A DNA stretch of 63,440 bases, counting the filler, from Licmophora abbreviata (lineage: Eukaryota): assembly GCA_900291995.1 (NCBI GenBank). It is 12 parts of 12 records of this genome, joined end to end, with 100 filler letters (N's around TTAATTAATTAA, not from the genome) between each part and the next. Parts side by side here need not be neighbours in the genome. Positions count along the whole stretch, not along the records: positions 17,603 to 26,429 come from OLMU01004624.1; 11 more parts are not named here. One strand, given 5' to 3'. Under the pieces are notes generated by a model. That model did no database searches, had not been told where the DNA came from, and saw only the letters and a list, made by a program, of their open reading frames with translations. Both the position numbers and the translations under genes were made by a program. Shown here in pieces: positions 2,333 to 44,344 of this stretch; the first letter of the stretch is position 1, and each line of letters opens with the position of its first letter.

Positions 2333-5300
2333 ATGTTGCGTCTGGCGTCCTCCAGGGTAACTCCATGGAAACGTCCCCTGGTGTCGAGTGTCAGATGTTT
2401 CTCTACGGCCGATACTAGCAAGGAGAGCAAGCCCAAGGGCACTCACTACTCCAAACTCACCGTCGGTATCCCTAAAGAGTACTTTCCTCTCGAGAAGCGA
2501 GTCGCAGCCACTCCGGAGGTACGTTGGTTGACTTCGCAAATTTCCCATGCGATGTATCGTTCGCTCGATCTGACAAATCGATTACGCTTGTTATAGTCCG
2601 TCCAACGGCTCGTCAAGCCGGGTTTCAACGTCTTGGTAGAGGACAGTGCAGGAATGAACTCTCACTTTTCCAATGCCGACTACGAAGGCAGTGGCGCAAC
2701 GGTTGTACCCAAGGAAGACTTGTGGAAGAAGAGTGATATTGTCTTGAAGGTGAGCAACTCATACATACTCGTATCCACTGTTACTGTATGAGTTCGTCAT
2801 AGGGAAGGAGCGCTCACTTCACTCGCCACTGCATCCCCACAGCTACGCCCTCCGACTCCCGAAGAAGCTGCTTCCTTGGAAGATCGTACGATAGTGTCGT
2901 TCTTGTATCCCAAGCAAAATCCTGAACTGGTGGACCAACTACAGAAGCAGGGCGCCACAGCTTTTGCAATGGACTGCATTCCTCGTACACTCTCGCGTGG
3001 TCAGACGTACGATGCATTGAGCTCGCAGGCCAACATAAGTGGTTACCGTGCGGTATTGGAAGCTGCCAATGAGTTTGGTCGCTTCTTTGCGGGTCAGATG
3101 ACTGCAGCGGGTAAGGTTCCGCCAGCCAAGGTGCTTGTGCTGGGTACAGGTGTGGCGGGACTCGCTGCCGTGCAGACGGCCAAGAATATGGGAGCCATTG
3201 TGCGGGCGTTTGATGTACGACCCGTCACTAAGGAACAAGTTGAAGCCATGGGCGGCCAGTTTCTCGAAGTAGACTTTCAGGAAGATGGTAGCGGCTCGGG
3301 TGGGTACGCCAAGGAAATGAGCAAGGAGTGGCATGCGGCGGCGGCTAGGATGTTGGCGAAGCAGTGTGAGGAGGTGGATGTCATCATTACGACTGCGCTC
3401 ATCCCGGGACGACCCGCACCCAAGATGATCACCAAGGACATGGTTGCAAAGATGAAAAGTGGCAGTGTCACGGTTGATCTTGCCGCTGAGACGGGAGGCA
3501 ATGTCGAAACGACGGTCGCAGACAAGAAGATCGTCACCGACAACGGTGTCGCATGCATTGGATACACCGACTTACCCAGTCGTCTACCGACGACGAGCTC
3601 GTCGCTGTACAGCAACAACATTTCCAAGTTTCTGCTGAGTGTGGGTCCCCAGACTACCCATGAAAAGGAATACTTTTACATTGACCATGACGATGAAGCG
3701 GTCCGCGGAATGATTGTCTTAGAGAATGGCGAAATGCTTTTTCCGGCACCGGCTCCTCCTCCGCCACCCCCCGCCAAGGAGGCGGAAAAGAAAGAGGTGG
3801 TTGCACCGCCACCCGATTACCGCGCTCCATTTGTACAGGGCGCGAAGACAGCGGGCTACGTGTCGGGCTCCATTCTTGCAATGGGTGCCCTCGCTCCGAA
3901 CCCCGCGTTCAGTTCTATGTTCACCACATTTGCCTTGTCCAACGTGATTGGTGTGCAAGTCGTCTTGGGTGTCTCTCATGCTCTTCACAGTCCGCTCATG
4001 GCGGTTACGAATGCGATCAGTGGTACCACGGCACTGGGTGGCATGCACCTAGTGGCGAACAGCAACTCTGCAATGGTTACCTTGCTTGGTGCAACTGCGA
4101 CTACACTTTCAACTGTCAACATTGTCGGTGGGTTCATTGTCACAACCAAGATGTTGGATATGTTCAAGAGGCCTGACGATCCTCCAGAATTCTACCATCT
4201 TNNNNNNNNNNNNNNNNNNNNNNNNNNNNNNNNNNNNNNNNNNNNTTAATTAATTAANNNNNNNNNNNNNNNNNNNNNNNNNNNNNNNNNNNNNNNNNNN
4301 NATTGTCACAACCAAGATGTTGGATATGTTCAAGAGGCCTGACGATCCTCCAGAATACTACCATCTTTATGGCATCCCGACTGGTTTGGCCTTGACCGCT
4401 TACGGAATCGGATCCTTGTCTGGAAAGTTTCCAGAGATCGATGCTGCGGCAGCAACTCTCTCCGGTTTGCTCTGCATTGGCGGAATCGGCGGTCTGGCCT
4501 CCCAGTCCACCGCTCGTCTAGGAGCTGTGTCTGGACAAGCCGGCGTTGCGTTTGGTGTTGCGTCCACACTTGGTCACGTATCGCCAAGTCTAGGGACGAC
4601 AGCTAGCATCGGTGGACTAATGGCCGTTGGTGGCGTCGCAGGAAACTACATTGGAAACCGCGTCGAGCCGACTTCTCTACCACAAACGGTAGCCGCGTTT
4701 CATTCGTTGGTTGGTATTGCTGCTAGCACCGCAGCGGTTGGTGACTACTTGAATGTGCCTGACGCAGCACAGCTGGATTCGGTTCACTTGGCTAGTATCT
4801 ATCTTGCCACTGTGATCGGAAGCGTTACGTGCACTGGATCACTGGTCGCTTTCGGAAAGCTAGACGGAAGGATGGCATCAGCTCCGTGGCAGCATCCTGC
4901 GAAGGATAAAATCAACGCAGGCCTTGCGGCCGCCACGCTCGGCGCGGGTGCTGTTGTAATGGGCGCACCAGAGCTTGGTGTGGGTATGACTGCTCTCACG
5001 AGTGCGCTGACCACGAGCGGGATATTGGGGTACACTATGACGGCGGGTGTCGGAGGCGCAGATATGCCAGTTGTGATCACTGTCTTGAACAGTTACTCTG
5101 GATGGGCCCTTTGTGCTGAAGGCTTCATGCTTGACATGCCGCTGCTTACGACAGTTGGTGCACTCATTGGATGCTCTGGTGCTGCTCTTACAAAGATCAT
5201 GTGCGATGCAATGAATCGCAACATCGTCAGCGTCATCCTTGGTGGATATGGCACCAAATCAACTGGAGGGGGTGAGGCCGTTCAGTTTGAGGGAGAGACG

Positions 5301-6007
5301 ACAATGACAAGTGTCGATGAAACTGTCAACCTTCTCACAGAGAGCGAAAGCATTATCATTGTGCCAGGTGAGTCGTTGTTTTGTGCTATGTGAATGCCGT
5401 CTCGACTGTGTTTATCGTCTCACCTCTACTGTATTTGTCTGACAATCTACAGGATACGGTTTGGCTGTCGCGAAGGGACAATACCCTCTGAAAGAAATGG
5501 TCGATTCGCTATTGAATGCTGGAAAGAAAGTGCGTTTTGCGATCCATCCTGTTGCTGGTCGCATGCCTGGACAGCTGAACGTCCTTTTAGCAGAGGCGGG
5601 TGTTCCTTATGACATTGTGTTTGAGATGGAAGAGATTAATGAAGACTTCGAAACGACTGATTTGGTGCTGGTGATTGGCGGTAAGTGATTGATAGTGCTC
5701 GAGTCCCATCAAAACTTGGAAGGGCCGATTTCAGCTCTGATGTTCCTTTTATCTTTTCTCAAATATAGCGAACGATACCGTCAATTCTGCCGCCATTGAC
5801 GACCCAAACTCCCAGATTGCTGGTATGCCTGTCTTGAGGGTGTGGGACTCGAAGCAGGTCATTGTCATGAAGCGCTCGCTTGCCGCAGGTTATGCAGGCG
5901 TGGACAATCCAGTGTTCATCAAAGACAATACTGACATGCTTCTCGGCGACGCGAAGGATACGTGCGAGAAGCTCGCTGCTGGCGTGAAGGTATTCTATAG
6001 TAGGTAG
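2333..6007 (+). CDS. NNT: Mitochondrial proton-translocating NAD(P) transhydrogenase (alpha-beta fused)
   Basis: R/S-rich presequence ([12 protein letters not shown]); motifs [84 protein letters not shown] introns at 2519-2596, 2750-2842, 5368-5452 and 5681-5768 keep the frame; crosses gap 4202-4301, whose flanks overlap. Confidence 0.96.
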
Positions 6008-6235: not shown

Positions 6236-9200
6236 TTACACATTTTCACTGACTGGTTCCTCCATGTTGAAGTCGCTGATGTTGAGCTTTTTGTGGAACT
6301 CGAGGTCCTCTAGTCGTTTTTCCAATTCGGCGATTCTTCGAGCTTGTGCTTCACTTTTCAACTCGGCCCTCTGCTCGTCTCGTAGGGTGTCGCTCAGGCT
6401 GTGTTCCTTTGCAAACGCATCGAGTTTCTCCTCACCGGCACTTGATGTCCAAAGCGAGGCCTCTCCATTCGTCACTCGCTTCAAATCACAAAACGAGCGC
6501 TTCGGGTCTTCCTTTCGAAGAAGAGTTTGGAAGAATCGAACGCCATCCGTACCGTTGAAGCCAGCAGCATCGGAAATGGCTTGCTCAAGAACCCTTGTCT
6601 CCCTGAGAATTTCCGTCTCATCTAGACGATGCGTCAATCCGGAAGAGGCCGCTGCCCAAGACGGTGGAACGAGGGGGTATGCTCCTTCGAAGATGAGCTT
6701 TACCAGACCAGCGACACCGCCCGCTAGGCCTCTCATGTACAATCCGCAAAGGTGCATCAAGGGCAAACCACGCTGCACGACTTCCGAAACATCATCCTTG
6801 ATTTCGACAGGGTATGCACTGTTTGCGTTCCCAGTGACGGGCACGCCTTCGTTCTCATCGATTAGATAGAGGAACGCCCGTCCTGATTCTTCGAAATAGT
6901 CAGTGATCGCCAAGACTCGCTCCTGCACGATAAGTCGAGCAACGATCATGGGGTCATCGCGAAAGCGTTCTACTTCGGTTGCGGCGAGCCGTATCATGGC
7001 TTCGTCGAGTTGGCGAAAGTCCTCCGATAACCGTAAGGACTGCAATAAATCTTTCGAAGACCAACGGAATGACTGATCTTTGTTGAAGACAGCGTTCTCA
7101 ACCAGACAAGCGTAATGGCACGCTTTCGAGAGGGCAAGAAGTTTGATGCCCATTCCTTCTGCGAGTTCGACATCCTTCTTGGTCGACGGGGTGAGTTTGC
7201 CAGATTTATTTTTCGACAGCTTATATGGAATAAGAACAAAGCTGCTTGGAGTCTCTAGCAGCTGCCGGTCACTAGAAAACTCCTTCCTGATGAGTTCTGA
7301 CGGGGACATGTAGATACGCCGCTGAAATCCCAGGTCCCAGCAAACTATACGTCTCGTCCGTTGCTGTAGCCATGCTTCGTCTGCTCGGGATGTTAATTCC
7401 TGCTCCTCTTTTCGTCGATGGGAAGCGCAGTCTTGAATTCGCTTGTCGACAATTCGCTTCGTCATCTTCTCCAACTTCGGTGAATGGTCATTGGCGAAGA
7501 AAGGATGGCTCAAAACGGTTTGCATATTGAGCTCGGCGCGCTCCTCAAAAGGTGAAAGGAGATGAAGGAGGATGTCCTGCGCCAGAGGATCGTCCACATT
7601 TCCATATATGAGCGCCTTTGCACGACTTCGACTCCAACAACCAATCTGCCAATGATCCAGTAGATGCCCCGTTCGCACATTCGTAGCAAACAAAGGATGT
7701 CCGCCACTGCATAGCGTGAAGAGAATCTGACCAAAAGACCAGATATCAGCGGCCTGGCGTACGGGGACCAACTTGTAAGGCAACTCGGGAAGCTTGTCTT
7801 CTTCATTTGAATCTTCGAGGAAGTGACAACGAAGAACATATGCATCACCGGTCGCCGGGTCGAATTGAGGTTCAATCAAACCCCTTTCAATGGCGACGTT
7901 GCCGGTCGACATAACACAGTCCCAGTAGTTTGAGTATATTTTCAACTCTGCTGGGTTGAGCTTTACGAACATCTCTGGAGGAAAGGTGCCTGTTGCGAAG
8001 TGGACGGTCCCAGTGGCGGAAATTCCAGCCATATAGCTGGCGGATGCCTGAGGACGGGCGCAGGAAAGGTCGGATAGTGCCCAGTATCGTGTGCCCCCTT
8101 TTTCTTCCGAGGATTGAAGAGACTTTACTCCACGAAAGGAGACGTTGCCGTGCAACAAACCTGCAATCGAAACAAGAAAACGTGAGAAGGTGCACATTAT
8201 TCTGTACTCTGGGCAGCAAATTGATGGGAGTTTCTCAGCTTACCATTTTCATGGATTCTCTTCAGCGACATGGCAATCTCAGCTCCAATGCCCCGAACTT
8301 GATCAGTCTTGAGAACTCCATGATGGTAATAATACTCTTGAAGATCGCCATCATCGCGGTGATGCATGACTACGGCGTACGGAAAGTTTGCAATATTCAC
8401 AGAATTTTCGCCGTCTTGCTGGGCAGCACTCGAATCAAAACTGACAATACGAAATCTTTCATCTTGAATATCCCGCTTGTATAGCTTGTCATTGTCCGTG
8501 TCCGCGTTGGCGCTGAAATGGTTTATCAAAGGGACGATGCTGCTCTCTTCTAGCTCGCCATCAAAAACTGGGATGCCAAGCATTTTTCTGCACTCTACTT
8601 CGCTCTTGTATGCCTGCTCGCTGCGCATGAACTTGAAACAGACCGTTCGCTTCGTTACACTAAAGACTGCCTTCGGCGTCTGCAGCTTCAATGGGTGCTC
8701 GCCAGTTTCCCAGATTCTCTCTTCGACATTGCCTGATGCCGCTATGACCTCCTCCTTCACGTCTTCGGTGGACACAATATGTTCCGTCGCGCGCAACAGC
8801 ACCGACTCGCCGTCACCGTTCCTGTGAATCAGTAAATTCTCATTTGGTCCAGCGAGAAACTCATAGCGACCCACAAAATAAAACATGCGATGGATGGCTG
8901 CTCGGCACTGTACATGTGCGACATCTCGTATGCTACTGCTTGCAGTGTAAGAGCCAATCTCGAGGTAACCAGTCGCGAAGGAAGGGAGTGTCCCAGAAAC
9001 AAGCGATGTAGTCGACGATATATCGACCCCATCCAGGATCTCAGTCACCTGTCTCGCATAGTGATCTTCTAGCGAGTCCGGATTCCTAAAGAGTGCGAAG
9101 AAGAGCCAAAGACGTCGTGCGACTTCGCTTAAAGCGTACACCCCAGAAACATTTTCTTTTCCCGTCGGCACGGATTCGCTTGGTGCTGGCTCCCTGCTTG

Positions 9201-12057
9201 TGTTCAACTCAGCGCCGTCATCATATGCATCCTCAAATGTGCGGGTTGATTGCGAAGAAAAGTCATGTGACTGACTCTGCCGTGTCGCGTCGTCGTTTGA
9301 AACATCCTGCCTCGTCGCGTCATCCACTGTTTTCATCGTGTCATCGTCAAACATAAGCTCGTCATCATATCGAGAGTCGTAATCATCGCTGCGGTATTCC
9401 CGATCGCTCCCTTCTTCTTCTGAGAAGTAGTCATCGTCCTCATCGTCCTCATCATCTTCATCATGGGTTGCGGTGGGGCTCAACGTATATCCAGCGTCCA
9501 GATCCTCGTCGTACATGGATTTCAGCTGGTCCTTCTTCGACGGACTTAACAGATTCTTCGGTGTTATCTTCTTGCGAGAGAATCGTATGTCCTGCTTTGG
9601 GGCTTTCGGAGTCTTTGAGTTCTTTGGCCTCTTTGAGCTCTTCGGTTTGTTGGGAATTTTCGACTTCTTGGGCTTTACCGCGAGATCAATACTGGGCGCT
9701 TCAATCGAAGAGAGCGTTGTCGTAAGCTGAAGGTCAGCGGAACTGTATTTCACCACTTCCTCTTGCGCAGCCAAGTGAAGACTCCCCTTTCCTTCCAGCT
9801 CATCTCGAATAACCTTCACGCAACGGTCGAGCAAAGCCTCTTTGCGACGATGAGCATCGAGTGTGGGACAAAAACTGAAGAGCAGCTCTCTCACCATGTG
9901 CCACGATTCTGCGTCTTCCGCCATCGAACGACGCTGTTCATGTAAATCAAGCGGTGTGTATCCGTGATCTTCGACCGCAGTAGTCAATTTCAGCGCCTTT
10001 GGGTAGGTCTCAACCATGCGATAGAGCTGACCATAAGGCAAAACGTCGAATGCCACTGCGATGTGGAGAGGCGTCATGCCGTGGTGAAGGCTAGCAATCT
10101 TGAGCGAAGCCTTGTCGTGTACAAGCGGCTCCATCAGAAGCCTCATCTTTTGCTGCAGCGCATTGAATTGTTTCTCACGGAATGAGACCTCGGCATCCGA
10201 CACCCATTCCGACGACACCGCCAGAGTGGCCTTCCTTGCCGGACTACTGGGTCCTGCCTTCTCTTTTCCGAATAGCTTGGTCTCCAGAAGTGAATGAATT
10301 GGCAAGTCACCATTTTCGCTCTGGAACCGCGCAGCCTTGGGATAACTGCCCAGCAATGCTTGTATGACCTCAAGCGAAGCCAGATTCTCGCAAGCCAAGT
10401 GCAATGGATACCTTCCACAAGAATCCTCCATTTTCAACGCCAATCTACCATTGACAAACGTTCCATGCCTGGATGTCACGTAGGCCTCTAACATGACATT
10501 CACAGTTTCGGCCGTAACGAGTGGTGTTGCAAATGGCGAACTCAGGAGCATGTGAAGAGGTGTCTGCAATGTCTCTTCTGTGGTATGGACAAGTCCAAAG
10601 GGATGCGATTGAATCAACGCCTTGACGACTTTTGGATTTGTCGCCACATGCAAGGCACAGTGCAAGGGCAAACGCCCCTGCTCATCCTCCATGTGTGCCG
10701 CACACGCTGGTCGCTCACCGACGGCGTGTACCATTTGGCTGTTGGGCGCTGCTCCCGGCGACTGCAACAAGAGTTCCAATAAGGCTTCTGGAGGTGCGAA
10801 CGCCCCGGGACCGCCGCCCTTGATCAAATCAACTTTGTCCCTCACACTCTTGTTGCGGCAAAGACGTTGCCATTCCAGCTCTTGCTGCTTGGCAACAGCG
10901 TCAAACAAAACGTGCAGAGGCGTTCGGCCTTGAGCGTCTTGAAGCGTCAACACTTCAAAATGATTGTCCAAGACAATTTGAAGCGCCTTGAGTGACATAC
11001 ATTCCGGAATCGACTTGTTGTCTTCGGAGAGTCCCTTGTGATAGAAACATCGCGCCAAGAGATGGATGGCCCAATGAAATGGAAAGCTACCACTGTCATC
11101 TGCCGTACGCGCCACCTTACTGCTCACCAGTGCATGAATGACAGTGGCCGAAATGTGCGTTTCGTACAGGGGCGGCGCGTTCGGGTTCGGCGCTTCTCCC
11201 GAAACATGCGAGGCCTTTTCGTCCGGGACAAACGTTCCGGCACCCAAGTACCACGCTAGCGCCGTCCGTCCTTTTCGATCGGTCTTGGTCTTGCTGTCGG
11301 GATAGGCCTGCAGCAACGCCTTGATGGCATCCTTCGACGCACCTTCCATGACGGCATAATGCAAGGGCAACGCACCGTGCTTGGCATCCGGAACAATGGC
11401 CGCAGTAGGCGGTATGCCCTCCTCTCCCGGGGAGGGAATGTCTGGAAGCGGTCCTTCTTCCCCCCTCTTGCTGGGATACTGCGTCACTCCGTGAAACGCA
11501 GAGGTCGGTAGTTGCTGACAGAACACTTCCACCAATGTTGGACTCCTCGTCTTGCCATGAAACCAGAACAAATAGTGCAAAGGCGTCCTTCCACCCTCAT
11601 CCCGATGCAAGAGGGCTTCCGGATATGCCAGAACAAGAATCTTGAGAACGTTTTCACTATCCTTGTTGTTCGAGGCATAGTTCCGACAAGCGCAGTGGAG
11701 CGGCAGTCGGCCTTTGCTATCCGCCATGCGTACAGCCTCGGGTCCTAAATGACAGAGTGCGGCAATGATATAGGCCGGTGCACTCTTACATGCAATCCGA
11801 AGAGGCGTATCTTCCTGTTTGGGCCCTTGCCCATCCAGAAGCTCGCGGGCCAAGTCGTCCGACGGTCCCGTGCAGACTGGGAGCGGCGAGTCAAAGTCGG
11901 GAGTGGGAGTATTGGCGTTGGTGACGCTGTGGCCTTCGAGGAAGTTCAAGATTTGATTCCAATGCGAGCGCTTGTGGGCGCCCCCGACCAGCTTGTGAAG
12001 CGTTCCAGCATAGCGACCCATGATGGCACGATGGTGATGGCGCGAACGAAAGAACAA
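6236..12057 (-). CDS. Large ankyrin-repeat protein with a C-terminal (pseudo)kinase domain and coiled coil
   Basis: Many (G)RLPLH/TPLH ankyrin motifs. A phase-1 GT-AG intron at 8161-8243 joins the two ORFs (IHENG|LLHGNVS). Kinase landmarks VCFK, FPPE, ADIWSFG, VLSHPFF. Confidence 0.85.
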
Positions 12058-23401: not shown

Positions 23402-23568
23402 AGAGCTGTCTGCTCAAAGTAGATGAAGGCAAGAAAGACAAGGAAAGACATTCGGCAAAAATCAGCGCATGGCTCTCGCGATATCGCATCCGAAAAGACA
23501 ACTACTGATACTCAATGCTATCAATTCTTATGACTCTAATCGACTACACTTGTAGCTCGGCAACACAT

Positions 23569-25320
23569 TCACAAATCCCCCGCCTTTGGAACTCCCAATG
23601 CATCCAGCTCCTCGTGGCAGTTGAACGCGTATCCAATGTCGGGGTAGCCATGCGGTCCTGGCTTCAAGGAGGTTTTATGATGAATCGACGCCCACGTGAC
23701 CACATTTCGTCGCCCGGATGTCAAGGACGTGCCAACGGTAAAGGTGAGGCCTCGTTCAAAGGCATACTGAAGTCTCTTCAGCAACTCTTTACCATCGCTT
23801 GGGAGATAGGCGGTACGGGATGCTCCCGCAAAGCGTACTCCAGGATGGTCATGGCAATCACTCTGCACCCCCGAAGGAATCTTGTACTTTATAGTATACG
23901 TCCCGTTCATACCATTGCATCGCTTGAATGCGTGGTACTCAATCGTCATGGTGCCAGCCGGGCACTTTCCAAAAGGCTCGCCGACCAAAACGCGGCACAT
24001 GGGACACTTGTTGGATCTCTTCAACGCCTCGTCAATACATTCCTTGTGAAAGGCATGTTGGCACTTGATGAGAGACGCGAAAGGACCGTTCACAGTACAC
24101 ATGCAAATAGGACATTCAATCTCCTCCTTGCTATGCGTGTGTATCCAGTAGCACGGTTGACTCGGGCTATTCTCCTGCCACGCCGCAAGAGACTCGGGTC
24201 CCGCGCATTGAACCGTCACAACTTTTGCTTTTCTAGTCATCCAAAACGGTGGTTTTATCATGCGCTCTCGCAGGGAATGCTGAAATATCAAATCCTCAAA
24301 GGACGGAACGACTCGACGAATGGTCGTCGGACGTTGATTCCAAAGTACATCGACGAGACTCTGAAGCTGCGAATGCAGACAGAAAAGCACTTCTGCGTTG
24401 TTGGCGTTCGATCGAGGAAAGTGAAAGAGCGGCAAGACTTGAGGACTGGTTCGAAGAATGATTTCATCAAAGTAGGACGACTTTGGATGTTCCAAAGTGA
24501 CATGACGACCCCCGGTGTCTTTCTTCATGAGCTTGTTCCCGAGCAACGTGTCGGCCGCATCGGAGGCTGCATCCTTGCCGTACTTTGTCATCTGTTCCAC
24601 GATGCCTTGAATGTAGAGCACCACAAGTCCCAAGTCACCGTAGGGCAGAAAGGCATGAGGATTGTTGGCAATGTATATTCCAGAACCAAAGCAGGTGCCG
24701 TGTCGATTTTCTTGATTGTCCCCACCTTCGACCAAGAGACCGTTCTGAGCAATCGAAGTCAAATTCTCACATGAAGTGTAATGAAATCCAACCATGACGT
24801 GAATGGGCCTTTTGGCAGTCCGGAACTCTTGTTGAAGACGCACAAAGTCGTTGGCGAGATAGTAGAGACACCCGGGGGGAAGCATTTGAACGTGAGAAAA
24901 TTTTCCCTGAAACGTTTGAACGAGTCTGCCAACCAGCTGAAACGGGTCCAAGTGATGAGGTTTGTTGTTGGTTGCGGAAAAGACGGGAGATGCCCCTCTA
25001 CTAGTAGAAGCAGTAGCGTTGACCGACATGGGTGGCGTGTCCTTGTCAACGGCGTCTCTCCGGAGACGGGCGACACGTGTTTGAGCTTGCTGTGACAACA
25101 GGAATTCAAGAGAACGCCGAGTCTGATGAGGTTTGCGAGATGACGGTTTCCGATTTCCGAGAGAGCGGATGAGTTTGCCGTTTGCGCAATCGTTTTCAGT
25201 CGGGTTTCTCAATAAAGTGCTCGAGCTTTTCTCGAGGTCTTGACAAAGCTCGCAAAGCATCTTCAAAATATCACTACGCCAGACGGCATCTGTATATCCA
25301 TACGTACTCTCCCCTATCAT
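23569..25320 (-). CDS. PARP-like ADP-ribosyltransferase domain fused to a RING-H2 and Deltex C-terminal (DTC) E3 ligase module
   Basis: ART motifs GFHYTS..SIAQNGL, FGSGIYIA, DEIIL..QVLP; RING CPIC..CQHAFHKEC..CPMC; DTC motifs RTAYLP, AFERGLTFTVGTSLTSG..VTWASIHHKT..HGYPD. First in-frame ATG is at 25320 (the ORF is open to 25542). Confidence 0.88.
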   Translation of the reverse strand: MIGESTYGYTDAVWRSDILKMLCELCQDLEKSSSTLLRNPTENDCANGKLIRSLGNRKPSSRKPHQTRRSLEFLLSQQAQTRVARLRRDAVDKDTPPMSVNATASTSRGASPVFSATNNKPHHLDPFQLVGRLVQTFQGKFSHVQMLPPGCLYYLANDFVRLQQEFRTAKRPIHVMVGFHYTSCENLTSIAQNGLLVEGGDNQENRHGTCFGSGIYIANNPHAFLPYGDLGLVVLYIQGIVEQMTKYGKDAASDAADTLLGNKLMKKDTGGRHVTLEHPKSSYFDEIILRTSPQVLPLFHFPRSNANNAEVLFCLHSQLQSLVDVLWNQRPTTIRRVVPSFEDLIFQHSLRERMIKPPFWMTRKAKVVTVQCAGPESLAAWQENSPSQPCYWIHTHSKEEIECPICMCTVNGPFASLIKCQHAFHKECIDEALKRSNKCPMCRVLVGEPFGKCPAGTMTIEYHAFKRCNGMNGTYTIKYKIPSGVQSDCHDHPGVRFAGASRTAYLPSDGKELLKRLQYAFERGLTFTVGTSLTSGRRNVVTWASIHHKTSLKPGPHGYPDIGYAFNCHEELDALGVPKAGDL

Positions 25321-25488: not shown

Positions 25489-27911
25489 ATGAAGAACCTC
25501 GACGGCGCGATGCTTCCGTTGCGAGTCTCTCCAAGATGTCAACGACGGCGACGGCCTGCATTCTCTTACTACTGGAATGGCAGTAGCAGTCGTTTTCTGT
25601 CATCGGCAGTACCTATACTTTTCTTGGTTTTTGTTTCGGCTGAGTTTAGCGCTGCTCAGGCTCCCTTTGAGGGCGACCAATCATGCCCTTGCTTACTGAG
25701 CACCGATCAAGGCCTCCCGCCCATTGATCCTGAAGACATTACCGATGATTTAATTCAGCAGATTGGTGGTACGAACAGTAGCGATATCGCTGTCTACGGT
25801 GTCGGCTGTGCACCACACGATGAAACGACTCCGATCTGCACCACGGACGACTGCAGTCTTGGACCGAACTACCTGCCCGCACCGGTCGACTGCGATCGGG
25901 ACTGGTGTCAAAGATCCTTTTGTTGGGTCGATCCTTTGAATTGTGAATTGCTCAATCGACGGTCGGCGTACTTTTCCAAGAGTGGACGTTACTATAGCTA
26001 CGCGACATGCTACGAAATGGATAGCTTCACGGATCAGTATCTTTTGTCCTCACTGCGCGGTAGAACCTTAAAGGTCGGCTTCAATTCCAACAGTGGTGGG
26101 TGGACGGGGGCGTACTCTACTACAGGAGAGCACTTCAAGGGTGGGATTGAAAAGTGGAGTGGGCCCGCCGTGACGTTTGCTCGCGAAGCGGCGCTCGCGG
26201 GAGGCTTTCGACTGCAGCTGACAGAGCCGCCGACCTTTTTGCGAAACGAGTCCTATGACTTTTTCGGAGCAAGTTCCTTCAGCTACTGTGTCTATGCCAC
26301 GGCATTGGGATACCTGGACATGTGTGTATCGCAATATTCGGTGACGGATCAACGAGCGTCAGCGACGGACTGGTTCTTGTTAGGGAACGAACCGCTCTAT
26401 CTCATTGTGCAGACAGATTCAGGAAATGANNNNNNNNNNNNNNNNNNNNNNNNNNNNNNNNNNNNNNNNNNNNTTAATTAATTAANNNNNNNNNNNNNNN
26501 NNNNNNNNNNNNNNNNNNNNNNNNNNNNNGGTATGTGGCCACCATCTTTCAGCCCCTTACTTTGGGTGCCTGGATGTTTATCGTTCTCTTTGTCATTCCC
26601 GTCATGGGGATGCTCTTTGTCTATCACGAGTATGGACGAGCTGGATCTGCCTTTCCGAAACAGGAACAGGTCTTGGTGTCGGACGATCATGAGACGTACG
26701 AAGTACAAGAACATGCAATTCCTCTTCGTACACATCTTATCCACTCCATCTACACGACACTTCTGTCCGTCTTGCATCAGAGCTACGGAGGATCGCTCGT
26801 TACCCCCGGAGCCATGTTTCATTTGCTCGGTTTTGCCTTTTTCATTCTGACCATCATTGCGGTCTACACTGCCAACTTGGCCGCGATATTGACGCAGCAA
26901 GCACAAGTTACGTCGGTGCAGGACTTTGAAGATGCTCTCAGTAGAGGCTATCGCTTTTGTGGCGAACGCACCAATATTGCCGATATGGAACTCATCTATG
27001 GTGTGAAACCTTCCGCCTTTGTGGTGGATCCTATCGAAGAAGGCGGCGACGGCCAACCAGGCTTTACGTGCTCCAACTGCCAGAGTCGGACTCGCGTATT
27101 TGACTTTTTGGATACCGCCAAGGCCGAGTCGGGTGATCCACGCTACTGCCATGCGGCGTTGGCTCCCCTGCAGGACTTGCAAGTGCTCCAGAACGCTGGG
27201 CAACACTGCAACAAGACAGATGTCGGACAACCGATTCGATATATACAGTCAGGCTTTCCAGTCAGCGAGCGAGTGTCTCGTGAGACGATTGCCATGCTTC
27301 TCAGGCTCAAGAATGGCGGGGTGTACGACAGGGAGCTCGTGAATTCTCAACCCGTGAGTCGATGCAGCGTGGAAGGCCCACAGGATTCTGAAGGGAGTGC
27401 CTTGTCGGTAGTGCAGCTCATGGGCATTTGGGTGGTTACCTTTGGATTCGCCTTTGGTGGTGTCCTCATCACTCTCTGTCAGCCATGGTGGAAGAAGGTT
27501 GCCCGACGGAAGAACAAACAAATCGTCAAGAAGGTTCATCGGCGCAATCAGAACATGATCCGGACACAGAAACTGGATCGTTCCGATTCGTTCTTGGGAG
27601 ATAATACCACAATCGTCAATGGTCGGCGTATCTTTACAGGCGTGCTGGACAATGAAAATCAATCGCTGCGGCGGAGCGACCATGGCCCTCTGCACCTAGA
27701 TGGGCAACGAGGCGTCGGTTTTACCGACACAATGAGGGGTGTCACAAGGCATCGCTCCTCGACGCAGACGTCCGCGACCGACAACCCCGTATCTGGAAGA
27801 TCAGAATCTCATCCCCAGGAGAATGGGTATAATCGTAATTTGGAAAGCGGAGCGGCTGACTTTGACGCAATAGATCAGTCTTTACGCTTGGATGTATCGT
27901 TCCACGGATGA
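25489..27911 (+). CDS. Ionotropic glutamate receptor-like (GLR) channel with Cys-rich N-terminal domain
   Basis: Signal peptide; S1 GRTLKVGF..DMCVSQYSVTDQRA; M1 IFQPLTLGAW; M3 VYTANLAAILT; S2; M4 LSVVQLMGIWVVTFG. Interrupted by gap 26430-26529. Confidence 0.88.
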
Positions 27912-40601: not shown

Positions 40602-43600
40602 ATGTCTTCTACTTCGTCGTCATGGGGAGACTGGATGGGAGCCTGGAAAGTCAACAACGCCGATGAGGAAGCCGAGCGCATTGATCGTCAAAAGGCTGCC
40701 TTTGGTGGAGACATGGTGGCACGCATCAAAGATTTGAATGTGTTGATTGTGGGGTGCCGTGGAGTCGGAGTGGAATGTGCCAAGAACATCATCCTAAGTA
40801 ACGTTGGCAGCGTGGTGCTGTACGATGTCGAGCCGGTACAAATGTGCGATTTGGGGACGAACTTTTACCTCCATGAGTCGCATGTCGATGATGACACTGC
40901 TACTCGTGCCAGCGCTTGTTTGCCCTCTCTCAAGACGTTGAATCCCTACTGTCGGGTCGAGGCGTGTGATAGCATCGGTGACGAGTACGTCTCTTCTCCG
41001 AATGTACTGGCTACCGGCATGCCTTTTTCGGCCATTGTCGTTACGACACTCCTACCGAAATCCGAATTGTATCGTCTCGACACACTCGCACGGTCCCGCA
41101 ACATGGCATTCATCCTTGCTGTCACGCATGGTGTGACATCGTCCATCTTTAGTGATTTCGGTGACTATCACGAAATTACCGACGTCAACGGCGAACCGAC
41201 CCAAACACTCGCTGTGAGCAACATTGAAGTCATTCCCAAGCCACCTCTACTGAAAGTGGAAGGCGCCAAGGATGGGGATATGCTGGTACTAATTACTGTC
41301 GCTCAGAGCGATCATGGGTTGGACAATGGCGATTGTGTCGTGTTGGATGACATGAGGGATGCACTTGCCTCGCTGAACACTCGTCAGTTTCAAGTACAGC
41401 GAGTCGCATTTCAGTCTCCCTCCTCTGCCAAAGTGGATACGACCGATGTTGCCTTTCAGGAGGCCTTGAAGCAGCCAACGTCTGCCGCCCTCGACAATTT
41501 TCAGCGGCAGTATGATTATTATCATCGTCAATATGAAGCGGAGAGTGAATGTGATGATAACACCAAAAAGAAGAAGTTTGCGGTTCGAACGATTACCATG
41601 TTCAATCGACTGGCGTTGGTATTGACTAATGAGGATGGTGTGTCGCCAGACTTGTTTGGCTCCTATGAAGCGGGTGGACTGCTTCATCAAGTGCGTCCGG
41701 TCGTCGTGAAGCAGTACAAGTCCCTCCAAGAGACATTGGAAAACGGCACGGCCGTACCGCAAATGTTGCGTGGAGAGGATTGGGAAGAAGGAAAGGGTAT
41801 TGAAATTCACCTTTCCGTGATGGCCGCGCTAGACTTTTATGGAGAACTGCAGCGCTGGCCTTGTATTCATGATCCCGACGATGCTAGCAAGATGCTGGAG
41901 CTCGCAAAGTCCATTTCTTCTGCACATAGTTCCAAGGAAGGAGCTTGCTGGGCGCAGAAGGTAGAATTCGGGTTCCCCTCCGGTGACGAACGGGATATCG
42001 ACGAGAATCGCATCAAACGCTTTGCTCGACTTTTTCGAACGGAACTGACCGGCTTCTGTGCCTTTTTGGGGGGAGTGGCAGCGCAGGAAGTCTTGAAGAA
42101 AACTGGAAAGTTCACCCCAATTGATCAATGGATCCATCACGATGAGCATTCCTTGGCGGCAGACGAATGTTCGTCCAACGTGATGCCCTTATTCGGGTCT
42201 CGCTACGACCATCAGATTGCAGTGATGGGAAAAGACTTTCAGGAGCGTGCAGCGAATCAGCGTGTCTTCTTAGTGGGCTGCGGTGCACTCGGTTGCGAGT
42301 ATCTCAAGGGATTGTCCCTAATGGGTGTGGTACGGGACGCAACGGCTCGATTTATGTTACCGACATGGATCGCATCGAAGTCAGTAATCTCTCGCGTCAG
42401 TTCTTGTTTCGTGATGCAGATGTGGGAAGTCCCAAGTCTGTCAGTGGAGCGCGCGTGGTCAAGGAGTGGAATCCTCAGATGAACATCACGGCGTTGGAGA
42501 AGAAGGTGGGACCGGACACGGAGGATTTCTTTGATGATAACTTCTGGGGGTCGCTAGATGTCTGCTGGAATGCTTTGGACAACGTAGTGGCTCGAAAGTA
42601 CACGGACGCTTGCTGTCTCTTCTTCTCTAAGCCATTGCTCGAGAGTGGGACTTTGGGAACCAAGTGCAACCATGAAGTCGTCTTGCCCTATCGTACTTCT
42701 TCGTACAACGATGGGAAGGAGTCGGACGAAAACGAGAATCAGATTGCCATGTGCACCCTTCGCTCGTTTCCTTATCTTCCACTCCACTGCATCGAGTTTG
42801 CCAAGCAGGCCTACTTTTCAGATTACTTTTGCTTCGCGCCTGATCAGTACGAAACTTTCCGAAAGGATCGCGCTTCCTTTTTTGAACAGCTGGACACGAT
42901 GGATGCTGGGGAGCAGCTCAAGAGTCTTCGTATGATTGACTCCTTCATTAAGCTGCAGAACGACGCTGGTGGGAAAATAGACTTTGACACGTGCGTTCGC
43001 ATTGCCTTCGATCGCATGATGGAAGATTTCCGTACTTCTGTTCTCAACTTGTGCTATGCAGCCGACCAGATGGAAAAGTCGGACGGAAAAAAGTTCTGGA
43101 CTGGAACGAAGCGACGCCCTCGTGCCGTTGAATGGTCTGACAGGGCTGTCCCAGAGCTGATGGAATATCTCTACTGCGCCGCCAATCTGTATGCGGTGGT
43201 GTGGGGCCTCGAGCCTGTCCGCGATCGGTCCCAGTTTGAAGAGGTTGTCGCTAGTTTGAAGCTGAAGCAGCCGGACTGGTCGCCTTCGGCGGAAAATGTG
43301 GATCTCAATGAGGAGGACGACACTGGAGAAGGTGGAGATGCTTCCGAGCAAGCGGAAAAGCTCAAGGCAGATCTCTACTCGTTCGACGTATCCACCCTAC
43401 AGCCCGCTTCGGCTCATGACTTTGAAAAGGATGACGATCTGAACTTTCACATTGACTTTCTAACCATCGCTACCAATATGCGAGCCTGGAACTATGATAT
43501 CAAAGAGTCACAGCGCCACACGGTCAAGGTGACGGCTGGCAGAATCATCCCAGCCCTGGCGACGACAACGGCCATGGTGTGCGGTCTTGTCGACATTGAA

Positions 43601-44344
43601 TTCTGTAAGCTCGTGCTAGGACTCCAGTCGATGGGTCGAGAGAAGTTTCTCAACTCAAACATCAATCTGGCGGCAGGATCGGGCAACTTTACGACGTACT
43701 CGCCCGACCCTCCTGTGTCTTTGTCGACGGGTCTCAAATTGCCCCACCCGGAAGTATTCAGCTCATGGGACAAAATCGACATTGTTTCTGTGGCTTCGGA
43801 GAAAAGTGTAGAGCAACTTGTTGCGTACCTCGAACACGCCTTCAATGTGACGGTTGATCGCATCTTTTCCTTTGGAAGCCAGGAGGACAGGGCGATCTAC
43901 AAGGCAACGGACAAGCAGAAATTGGATTGGGAAATCACGTTTGACGAAGGAGGCAAGCCGCAGGTATCGGATGGAGTGTTCGCGCTGTGGCCGCAGATGA
44001 GGATGGCCGTGCAGATGCTCTCGAGGCTCCCCCCATCCAGCGGGCAGCGCAAAGTCTTTGAAGGCCAGGTTGCAAATGTGAAGAAGGCCCTCGACAAGAC
44101 CAAGGAGAGCTTTGCGGATACGTTCCATGGCCCCGTTTCCAAGGCTTATCGGGCCACGTATGAACCGGAAGACGACACCGAGAAGAAGTACTTTGACGCA
44201 GTGTTTGGCCGCAGCGACTACTTGAAGTTAGGAGTCCATTGCCACACGGAGGGCGGTGAAGATATTCACTTGCCGTGCATCAAGTACAACTATTCGAATG
44301 GAGGAAGCGAACCCGCGGTTAAGCGACCCAAGGTAGAGAATTGA
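40602..44344 (+). CDS. Ubiquitin-activating enzyme E1 (UBA1/UBA6 family), divergent, with an apparent 1-nt frameshift at 42329-42330
   Basis: IDRQ..LIVGCRGVGVECAKNIIL; RYDHQI..LVGCGALGCE; DMDRIEVSNLSRQFLF; ALDNVVAR; LESGTLGTK; catalytic IAMCTLRSFP; FEKDDD; AGRIIPALATTTA. One extra G restores MGVGTGRNG. Confidence 0.92.

Follow-up and report, generated by a model that had tools for sequence, protein, structure and literature searches.

A single uninterrupted gene in Licmophora abbreviata that joins a predicted PARP-clade ADP-ribosyltransferase domain to a Deltex-type RING-DTC ubiquitin ligase

Can the enzyme that attaches ADP-ribose and the ligase that recognises it be encoded by one gene, and if so, what would such a protein do? 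The question is raised by a gene on the minus strand of a 63,440-nucleotide stretch of DNA (here, the window) from Licmophora abbreviata (GenBank assembly GCA_900291995.1), which was the DNA examined in this study. An earlier examination, made without database searches (the sequence-only reading), had proposed that the gene encodes an ADP-ribosyltransferase (ART) domain of the PARP type followed by a RING-H2 finger and a Deltex DTC domain, and that the product could deposit ADP-ribose and ubiquitylate it in cis. Here we report a computational follow-up based on structure prediction, fold comparison, family searches and residue mapping. The analysis indicates that a PARP-type ART and a Deltex-type ligase are joined in one uninterrupted gene, whereas animals keep the two activities on separate proteins.

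The coding sequence lies in a single open frame on the minus strand that runs from position 25542 to a stop codon at 23569-23571. The earliest ATG is at 25320 and the frame is open and ATG-free from there upstream to 25542, giving a full coding frame of 583 codons plus the stop (23569-25320, minus strand) as determined by translation. A tblastn search of the 583-residue protein against the window found one copy. This is a eukaryotic nuclear gene whose product begins with a disordered N-terminus and continues with a divergent PARP-clade ART domain bearing a His-Tyr-Glu (H-Y-E) triad, a RING-H2 finger and a Deltex DTC domain, in that order. Pfam searches of the protein returned no WWE, KH or macro domain at E ≤ 1, and no nucleic-acid-binding domain was found by Pfam.

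The middle domain was examined by sequence and by predicted fold. Searched against PDB sequences with phmmer, the ART fragment (residues 140-350) gave the ADP-ribosyltransferase DarT1 as its top match, which was not significant (E 0.13 over 34 residues), and a profile built from the mixed alignment gave only RING or DTC matches among the 60 matches listed, which leaves the PARP question aside. As the sequence evidence for an ART was thin, the structure of residues 140-350 was predicted using AlphaFold (AF2) with an input alignment of 90 homologues. The resulting model had a mean predicted local distance difference test score (pLDDT) of 90.6 and a predicted template modelling score (pTM) of 0.88. 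When the model was compared to the PDB using Foldseek, the ART domain of PARP1, PARP2 or PARP4 accounted for all 35 matches listed (to rank 49). The best E value was 2.1e-7, and E ≤ 1e-3 was reached by 270 chains.

A comparison independent of Foldseek, the VIA scan, was carried out against 48,161 representative PDB chains, of which the first 16 were all of the PARP family (Z 10.5-12.2, over model residues 1-171). The list was headed by PARP13 (Z 12.2, root-mean-square deviation 3.2, 135 residues aligned), tankyrase 2 (11.9), RCD1 (11.7) and PARP1 (11.5), followed by TASOR, PARP15, PARP10, PARP2, PARP4, PARP3, tankyrase 1 and SRO1, down to Z 10.5. Below this block were an unassigned Toxoplasma chain (8.3), PARP16 (7.5), diphtheria-toxin-like toxins (approximately 6) and DarT (4.7). 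Since 16 PARP-family chains lead the scan, with the toxins and DarT far lower, the modelled fold of the middle domain is PARP-clade, beyond merely ART. The PARP-clade ART core as predicted by the AF2 model, Foldseek, the VIA scan and the Pfam PARP profile comprises residues 140-310 (24391-24903, minus strand).

Relatives were sought by a full scan of 1.84 billion protein cluster representatives. It returned 3,687 matches at E ≤ 1e-3, of which 536 had E ≤ 1e-30, mostly to the RING or DTC. A hidden Markov model (HMM) of the ART region was then built from eight aligned sequences and applied to 154 proteins with a threshold of E ≤ 1e-3; it matched 99, here referred to as the family proteins. The order ART, RING, DTC occurs in 95 of the 150 nearest cluster representatives, or in 91 of 146 when the sequences used to build the HMM are left aside. 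Pfam annotation of 74 of the family proteins identified DTC in 74, zf-RING_2 in 73 and PARP in 12 (E ≤ 0.01), and neither WWE nor macro domains were among the 25 families listed of the 41 that were matched. Seven longer proteins were found when the ART fragment was used alone as the query, and all seven contained a DTC domain; no ART-only protein of 116-370 residues was present among 125 candidates, a result that is weak evidence as the search relied on a word index. In the family, the ART domain is preceded by an N-terminal extension with a median length of 134 residues (range 1-640). We conclude that the architecture represents a large family with a common module order, of which the gene in the window is one member and not a one-off.

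The family was also traced in genomic sequence. Sixteen related metagenomic loci were recovered, and in seven of these the ART and RING-DTC segments lie next to each other, sharing one open reading frame (ORF) in two (L010 and L011). In the other five (L001, L002, L004 and the near-identical L005 and L006) the frame changes inside the ART or the RING-DTC domain, so that this domain is divided over neighbouring ORFs in different frames; these changes look consistent with short introns, of which the gene in the window needs none. No relative was found among 120 pattern matches in viral contigs, and the ESM Atlas gave no usable match to either the whole protein or residues 121-583. The 55 relatives without an ART domain consist mostly of two or three tandem RING-DTC units per predicted protein (P0010, P0012, P0014, P0016-P0019 and others), which may be genuine tandem ligases or gene calls that were merged.

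The three residues of the predicted H-Y-E triad were located by translation and homologue alignment: His180 in the motif GFHYT (residues 178-182; codon at 24781-24783, minus strand), Tyr216 in FGSGIY (residues 211-216, of the form FGxGIY; 24673-24675) and Glu286 in DEIIL (residues 285-289, within Y-F-D-E-I-I; 24463-24465), the last being at the start of a beta-strand in the model. All three lie on predicted strands at the places where the triad is expected. Across the eight aligned homologues H180, Y181, T182, G212, G214, Y216 and E286 are invariant. Among the 99 family proteins, counted where aligned, His180 is present in 91/91, Tyr216 in 96/96 and Glu286 in 68/87. The full triad is found in 64 of the 99, whereas another 16 have His and Tyr together with a different, mostly hydrophobic residue (L, I, V, F, M, A, S or T) and the rest have gaps or truncations at the triad positions. 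An H-Y pair with a mostly hydrophobic third residue is the pattern of active mono-ARTs. Because the triad is invariant in the eight homologues and conserved across the 99 family proteins, the alignments show a signal beyond chance.

The RING-H2 finger (residues 402-443; Pfam zf-RING_2, E 3.5e-10) has all eight ligands in C3H2C3 order, namely C403, C406, C420, H422, H425, C428, C439 and C442, encoded at 23995-24114 on the minus strand, and every ligand is retained in 93-97 of the 99 family proteins. The finger is directly followed, as in Deltex-type ligases, by the DTC domain (PF18102, residues 451-577; 23590-23970, minus strand; Pfam E 1.1e-35, cut-off 25 bits), in which translation places the motifs IHHKT at 23671-23685 and HGYPD at 23638-23652. 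Matches found by phmmer in the PDB included DTX2 (6y22, E 1.5e-27), DTX1 (6y5n, E 7.9e-27) and DTX3L (3pg6, E 2.4e-23). On these grounds the protein is a predicted DTC-family ligase and not an orthologue of any named animal DTX, because the WWE pair of DTX1, DTX2 and DTX4 and the RRM and KH-like domains of DTX3L are absent.

The functional residues of the DTC domain were examined against human DTX2. According to the available text of Ahmed et al. 2020 (PMC7442474), DTX2 contacts ADP-ribose through Arg535, Ser567, Ser568, Trp578, His582 and His594, and the available portion of PMC7615817 describes His582 and Glu608 as the catalytic pair needed for hydroxyl activation. To relate these numbers to the structure 6y22, we inferred that the chain index plus 387 gives the DTX2 number, an offset that was adopted because all seven DTX2 numbers then fall on the correct residue type. 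All seven residues align to matching columns and six are identical. Arg535 corresponds to Arg502 (23815-23817, minus strand; kept in 81 of the 99 family proteins), Ser567 to Ser532, Trp578 to Trp543 (23692-23694; 98/99), the catalytic and ADP-ribose-contacting His582 to His547 (23680-23682; 87/99), His594, which stacks on the adenine, to His557 (23650-23652; 86/99) and the catalytic Glu608 to Glu571 (23608-23610; 85/99, with Asp in seven). The single substitution is at Ser568, a main-chain contact, which is Leu533 here. The putative catalytic His/Glu pair is intact in 80 of the 99 family proteins, and 54 of the 99 retain both this pair and the complete H-Y-E triad.

The description of the protein given by the sequence-only reading thus stands. 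The positions it had assigned to the H, Y and E residues, the RING, IHHKT and HGYPD were reproduced exactly by a scripted translation, and modelling of the middle domain as an ART fold, a check it had named beforehand, gave a PARP-clade fold by AF2, Foldseek and VIA alike. We likewise agree with its account of three modules in one open frame, of a triad that is apparently intact, of a RING and DTC that retain their functional residues (as judged by the alignment with DTX2 and the family counts) and of a protein devoid of WWE and KH domains.

How does this architecture compare with systems already described? One close parallel is the vertebrate DTX3L-PARP9 heterodimer, in which a RING-DTC ligase is paired with a PARP-fold protein and the DTC can be aligned with that described here (E 2.4e-23). 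PARP9 is not known to have an H-Y-E triad, whereas the ART domain here keeps it, and the RRM and KH-like domains of DTX3L are missing from the present protein. The two animal proteins are separate polypeptides joined via the D3 domain of DTX3L, according to the available part of PMC10955461, in contrast to the single chain reported here. The closest RING-DTC by sequence is that of DTX1, DTX2 and DTX4, which have the order WWE-RING-DTC and act on the products of PARP1 or tankyrase; their WWE is absent here and an ART domain precedes the RING instead. Coupling of ART activity to ubiquitin attachment within one polypeptide is also known from the SidE-family effectors of Legionella, which use an ADP-ribose-derived linkage. 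The mechanism there is unrelated: ubiquitin itself is ADP-ribosylated, a phosphodiesterase then makes the join without E1 or E2, and the ART belongs to an unrelated bacterial clade with no RING or DTC.

Fusions of a PARP catalytic domain to a domain of the ubiquitin system have been reported in the available text of Citarelli et al. 2010 (PMC2964712), namely the Dictyostelium U-box-macro-PARP and, in fungi, the clade 6A PARPs that carry an E2-like UBCc domain. These resemble the present gene in having both kinds of domain in one protein but differ in having no DTC, which leaves them no known means of ubiquitylating ADP-ribose as such. The architecture PARP, RING, DTC is not described in the portion of that survey available to us, which also states that diatoms and brown algae apparently lack PARPs. 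In Gazave et al. 2009, as far as its accessible text goes, Deltex was called holozoan-specific with WWE plus RING as the criterion, and a 2026 preprint places the interconnection of the ADP-ribosylation and ubiquitylation systems in metazoan evolution. Deltex-family genes were reported to rise during diatom sexual reproduction in the accessible part of a 2025 paper (PMC12618581); the term 'Deltex' does not occur in its supplements, and the tie of these genes to the ART-RING-DTC family is only a lead. The sequence-only reading had known of no description of the fusion, and our full-text literature search, whose coverage did not extend to the Aravind et al. 2015 review, found none. The same reading had treated the architecture as singular, a view that gives way to that of a large family, as one is formed by 95 of the 150 nearest representatives.

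What, then, might such a protein do? The mechanism best supported by the evidence, although we would stop a little short of calling it probable, is that of a cis-acting writer of ADP-ribose and then ubiquitin, proposed by analogy with DTX2. The ART domain would bind NAD+ and move ADP-ribose, in mono- or poly-ADP-ribose form, onto itself or onto a nearby protein. The ADP-ribose would be captured by the DTC pocket formed by Trp543, His557, Arg502 and Ser532, while a charged E2~ubiquitin would be brought in by the RING. His547 and Glu571 would then activate the 3' hydroxyl of the adenine-proximal ribose, and ubiquitin would be esterified onto ADP-ribose as described for human DTX2. The outcome would be a hybrid ADP-ribose-ubiquitin mark made by a single polypeptide, in cis, compared to the PARP/DTX pairs of animals which act in trans. 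Its biological role may concern stress or antiviral defence, as the sequence-only reading suggested, or be related to DNA or meiosis. That the ART-RING-DTC family as a whole constitutes a self-contained hybrid ADP-ribose-ubiquitin writer outside animals is a broader claim, which we put forward tentatively.

Several observations weigh against an active ART and hence have to be set beside this mechanism. The match to the Pfam PARP profile (PF00644) is marginal, at 27.1 bits for a cut-off of 26.7, and is confined to profile positions 36-92 of 199, a region that spans the H and Y of the triad, and at E ≤ 0.01 the profile is matched by only 12 of the 74 family members annotated. The phmmer search of residues 140-350 against PDB sequences gave no PARP match. 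PARPs and diphtheria toxin have the motif HG[ST], with Gly after the catalytic His, whereas the residue here is Tyr181 (H-Y-T), and 83 of the 91 family members aligned at this site likewise have Tyr. The Glu is absent in 19 of the 87 members aligned at that site. In the VIA list, inactive PARP domains (PARP13, RCD1, TASOR and SRO1) are tied at the head, and fold alone is no proof of activity because these domains share the top ranks.

The tie with inactive domains, the Tyr after the His, the marginal Pfam score and the loss of the Glu in some members favour a rival reading, in which the ART is a non-catalytic, NAD+- or ADP-ribose-binding or regulatory pseudo-PARP (as in PARP9, PARP13, TASOR and plant RCD1) that recruits or gates the RING-DTC. 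It would then replace the WWE or KH of animal Deltex proteins, with the ADP-ribose being written by another enzyme, and the absence of any detected WWE, KH or macro reader that could supply substrate recognition instead fits such a role. The conservation of the triad argues in the other direction, with His and Tyr retained in every aligned member and Glu in most. To our knowledge, the known pseudo-PARPs have lost the H-Y-E triad, unlike the domain here. An aromatic residue immediately after the His need not indicate inactivity either, since it is also seen, in a weak alignment, in DarT1, which we take to be an active enzyme (in the database match it is simply named an ADP-ribosyltransferase). 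On balance, a pseudo-PARP seems rather unlikely, and it is the strongest of the alternatives to the cis writer.

A second alternative accepts an active ART and places the difference in the output. ADP-ribose added in cis would serve only as a docking signal, or degron, for the DTC, and the ligase would ubiquitylate lysines and bring about turnover of the target, on the model of poly(ADP-ribose)-dependent ubiquitylation by DTX2 or RNF146. Recruitment of ADP-ribosylated proteins for ubiquitination was what the DTC of DTX2 was initially shown to do, according to the available text of PMC7442474, and the residues with which DTX2 binds ADP-ribose are retained here apart from the main-chain contact (Ser568 to Leu533). 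Docking alone would leave the catalytic His/Glu pair superfluous, however, and this pair is kept both in the present protein and in 80 of the 99 family proteins. We therefore consider lysine ubiquitylation as the output to be improbable, while noting that it and the ubiquitylation of ADP-ribose are not mutually exclusive.

Less probable still, and in our view very unlikely, is a nucleic-acid target, in which the ART would modify the ends of DNA or RNA and the ADP-ribose placed there would be ubiquitylated by the DTC, as reported for DTX3L on ADP-ribosylated nucleic acids. Ubiquitylation by DTX proteins of ADP-ribose on nucleic acids has been reported (PMC10810221, available in part), and the sole sequence-level PDB match of the ART fragment, the non-significant one noted above, is to DarT1, a DNA ADP-ribosyltransferase. 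Structurally, DarT matches only weakly in comparison with the PARPs (Z 4.7 vs 10.5-12.2), and the Pfam search of the protein gave no nucleic-acid-binding domain. That the fusion is an artefact, either by chance read-through of two genes or as a decaying pseudogene, is scarcely credible: the start codon is uncertain, but all three modules lie in an unbroken 583-codon frame, the combination recurs in the nearest representatives and in related genomic loci, the functional residues are conserved in the family and the antisense ORF matches no known family.

The uncertainty of the start codon arises because residues 1-120 (24961-25320, minus strand) are unconserved and modelled at low confidence. 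The full-length model (pLDDT 80.7, pTM 0.52) is confident from approximately residue 121 and poor before it; the pLDDT is below 60 in most 10-residue blocks of residues 1-120, the exception being two predicted helices, and residues 1-95 do not align to homologues. Translation may start at M21 or M98 instead of M1, in which case residues 1-120 would partly be 5' untranslated region. The 174-residue stretch that precedes the ART domain gave no Pfam match at E ≤ 0.1, and neither did the antisense ORF of 419 codons at 23515-24774 (plus strand), in all likelihood a shadow ORF.

Between the ART core and the RING finger, residues 311-398 (24127-24390, minus strand) are modelled confidently and lie beyond the range aligned to the PARP-family chains listed. 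This linker comprises a helical extension (residues 311-354; 24259-24390) recognised by high-pLDDT helices and invariant columns, and a small beta-alpha-beta element (residues 365-398; 24127-24228) with strands predicted at 368-372 and 391-394 and a helix at 375-384. Near the helical extension N307/N308, Q320, D324, P339 and D343 are invariant in the eight-homologue alignment, as is P375 in the second element. From the model, the helices after approximately residue 310 look family-specific.

The neighbourhood of the gene consists of ordinary eukaryotic genes and provides no functional clue. A glutamate-receptor-like ligand-gated channel gene (25489-27911, plus strand) is divergently oriented, 169 bp upstream of the ATG at 25320, and is interrupted by a run of N near 26430-26580. 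A ubiquitin-activating enzyme E1 (ThiF and UBA_E1_SCCH) is represented by two overlapping ORFs in different frames at 40602-44344 (plus strand), a split that suggests an intron or a frame error; its presence 17 kb from the ART-RING-DTC gene is probably a coincidence. The alpha and beta parts of an NAD(P) transhydrogenase are found at 2969-5393 (plus strand) as two consecutive ORFs (AlaDh_PNT_C and PNTB_4TM, then PNTB) that probably form one intron-containing gene. An ORF of 1,274 codons at 8197-12021 (minus strand) contains numerous ankyrin repeats, with no further domain recognised, and genes for an HMG-box protein and a thioesterase are also present in the window.

If the ART-RING-DTC family is indeed a hybrid ADP-ribose-ubiquitin writer, the coupling of ADP-ribosylation to Deltex ubiquitylation would not be a metazoan invention, and lineages reported to be without PARPs would carry divergent PARP-clade enzymes hidden within 'deltex-like' proteins. 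The existence of a widespread family in which both active sites are conserved would lend itself to the gene-fusion ('Rosetta stone') argument, here for an older or repeated origin of the coupling. The family would also add to the PARP clade a divergent branch that is missed by BLAST and largely by Pfam too. It would offer a compact one-protein system with which to reconstitute the reaction and, if the proposed activity is true, a natural minimal system for hybrid-mark chemistry, which in protists might take part in antiviral signalling or in signalling linked to DNA or meiosis.

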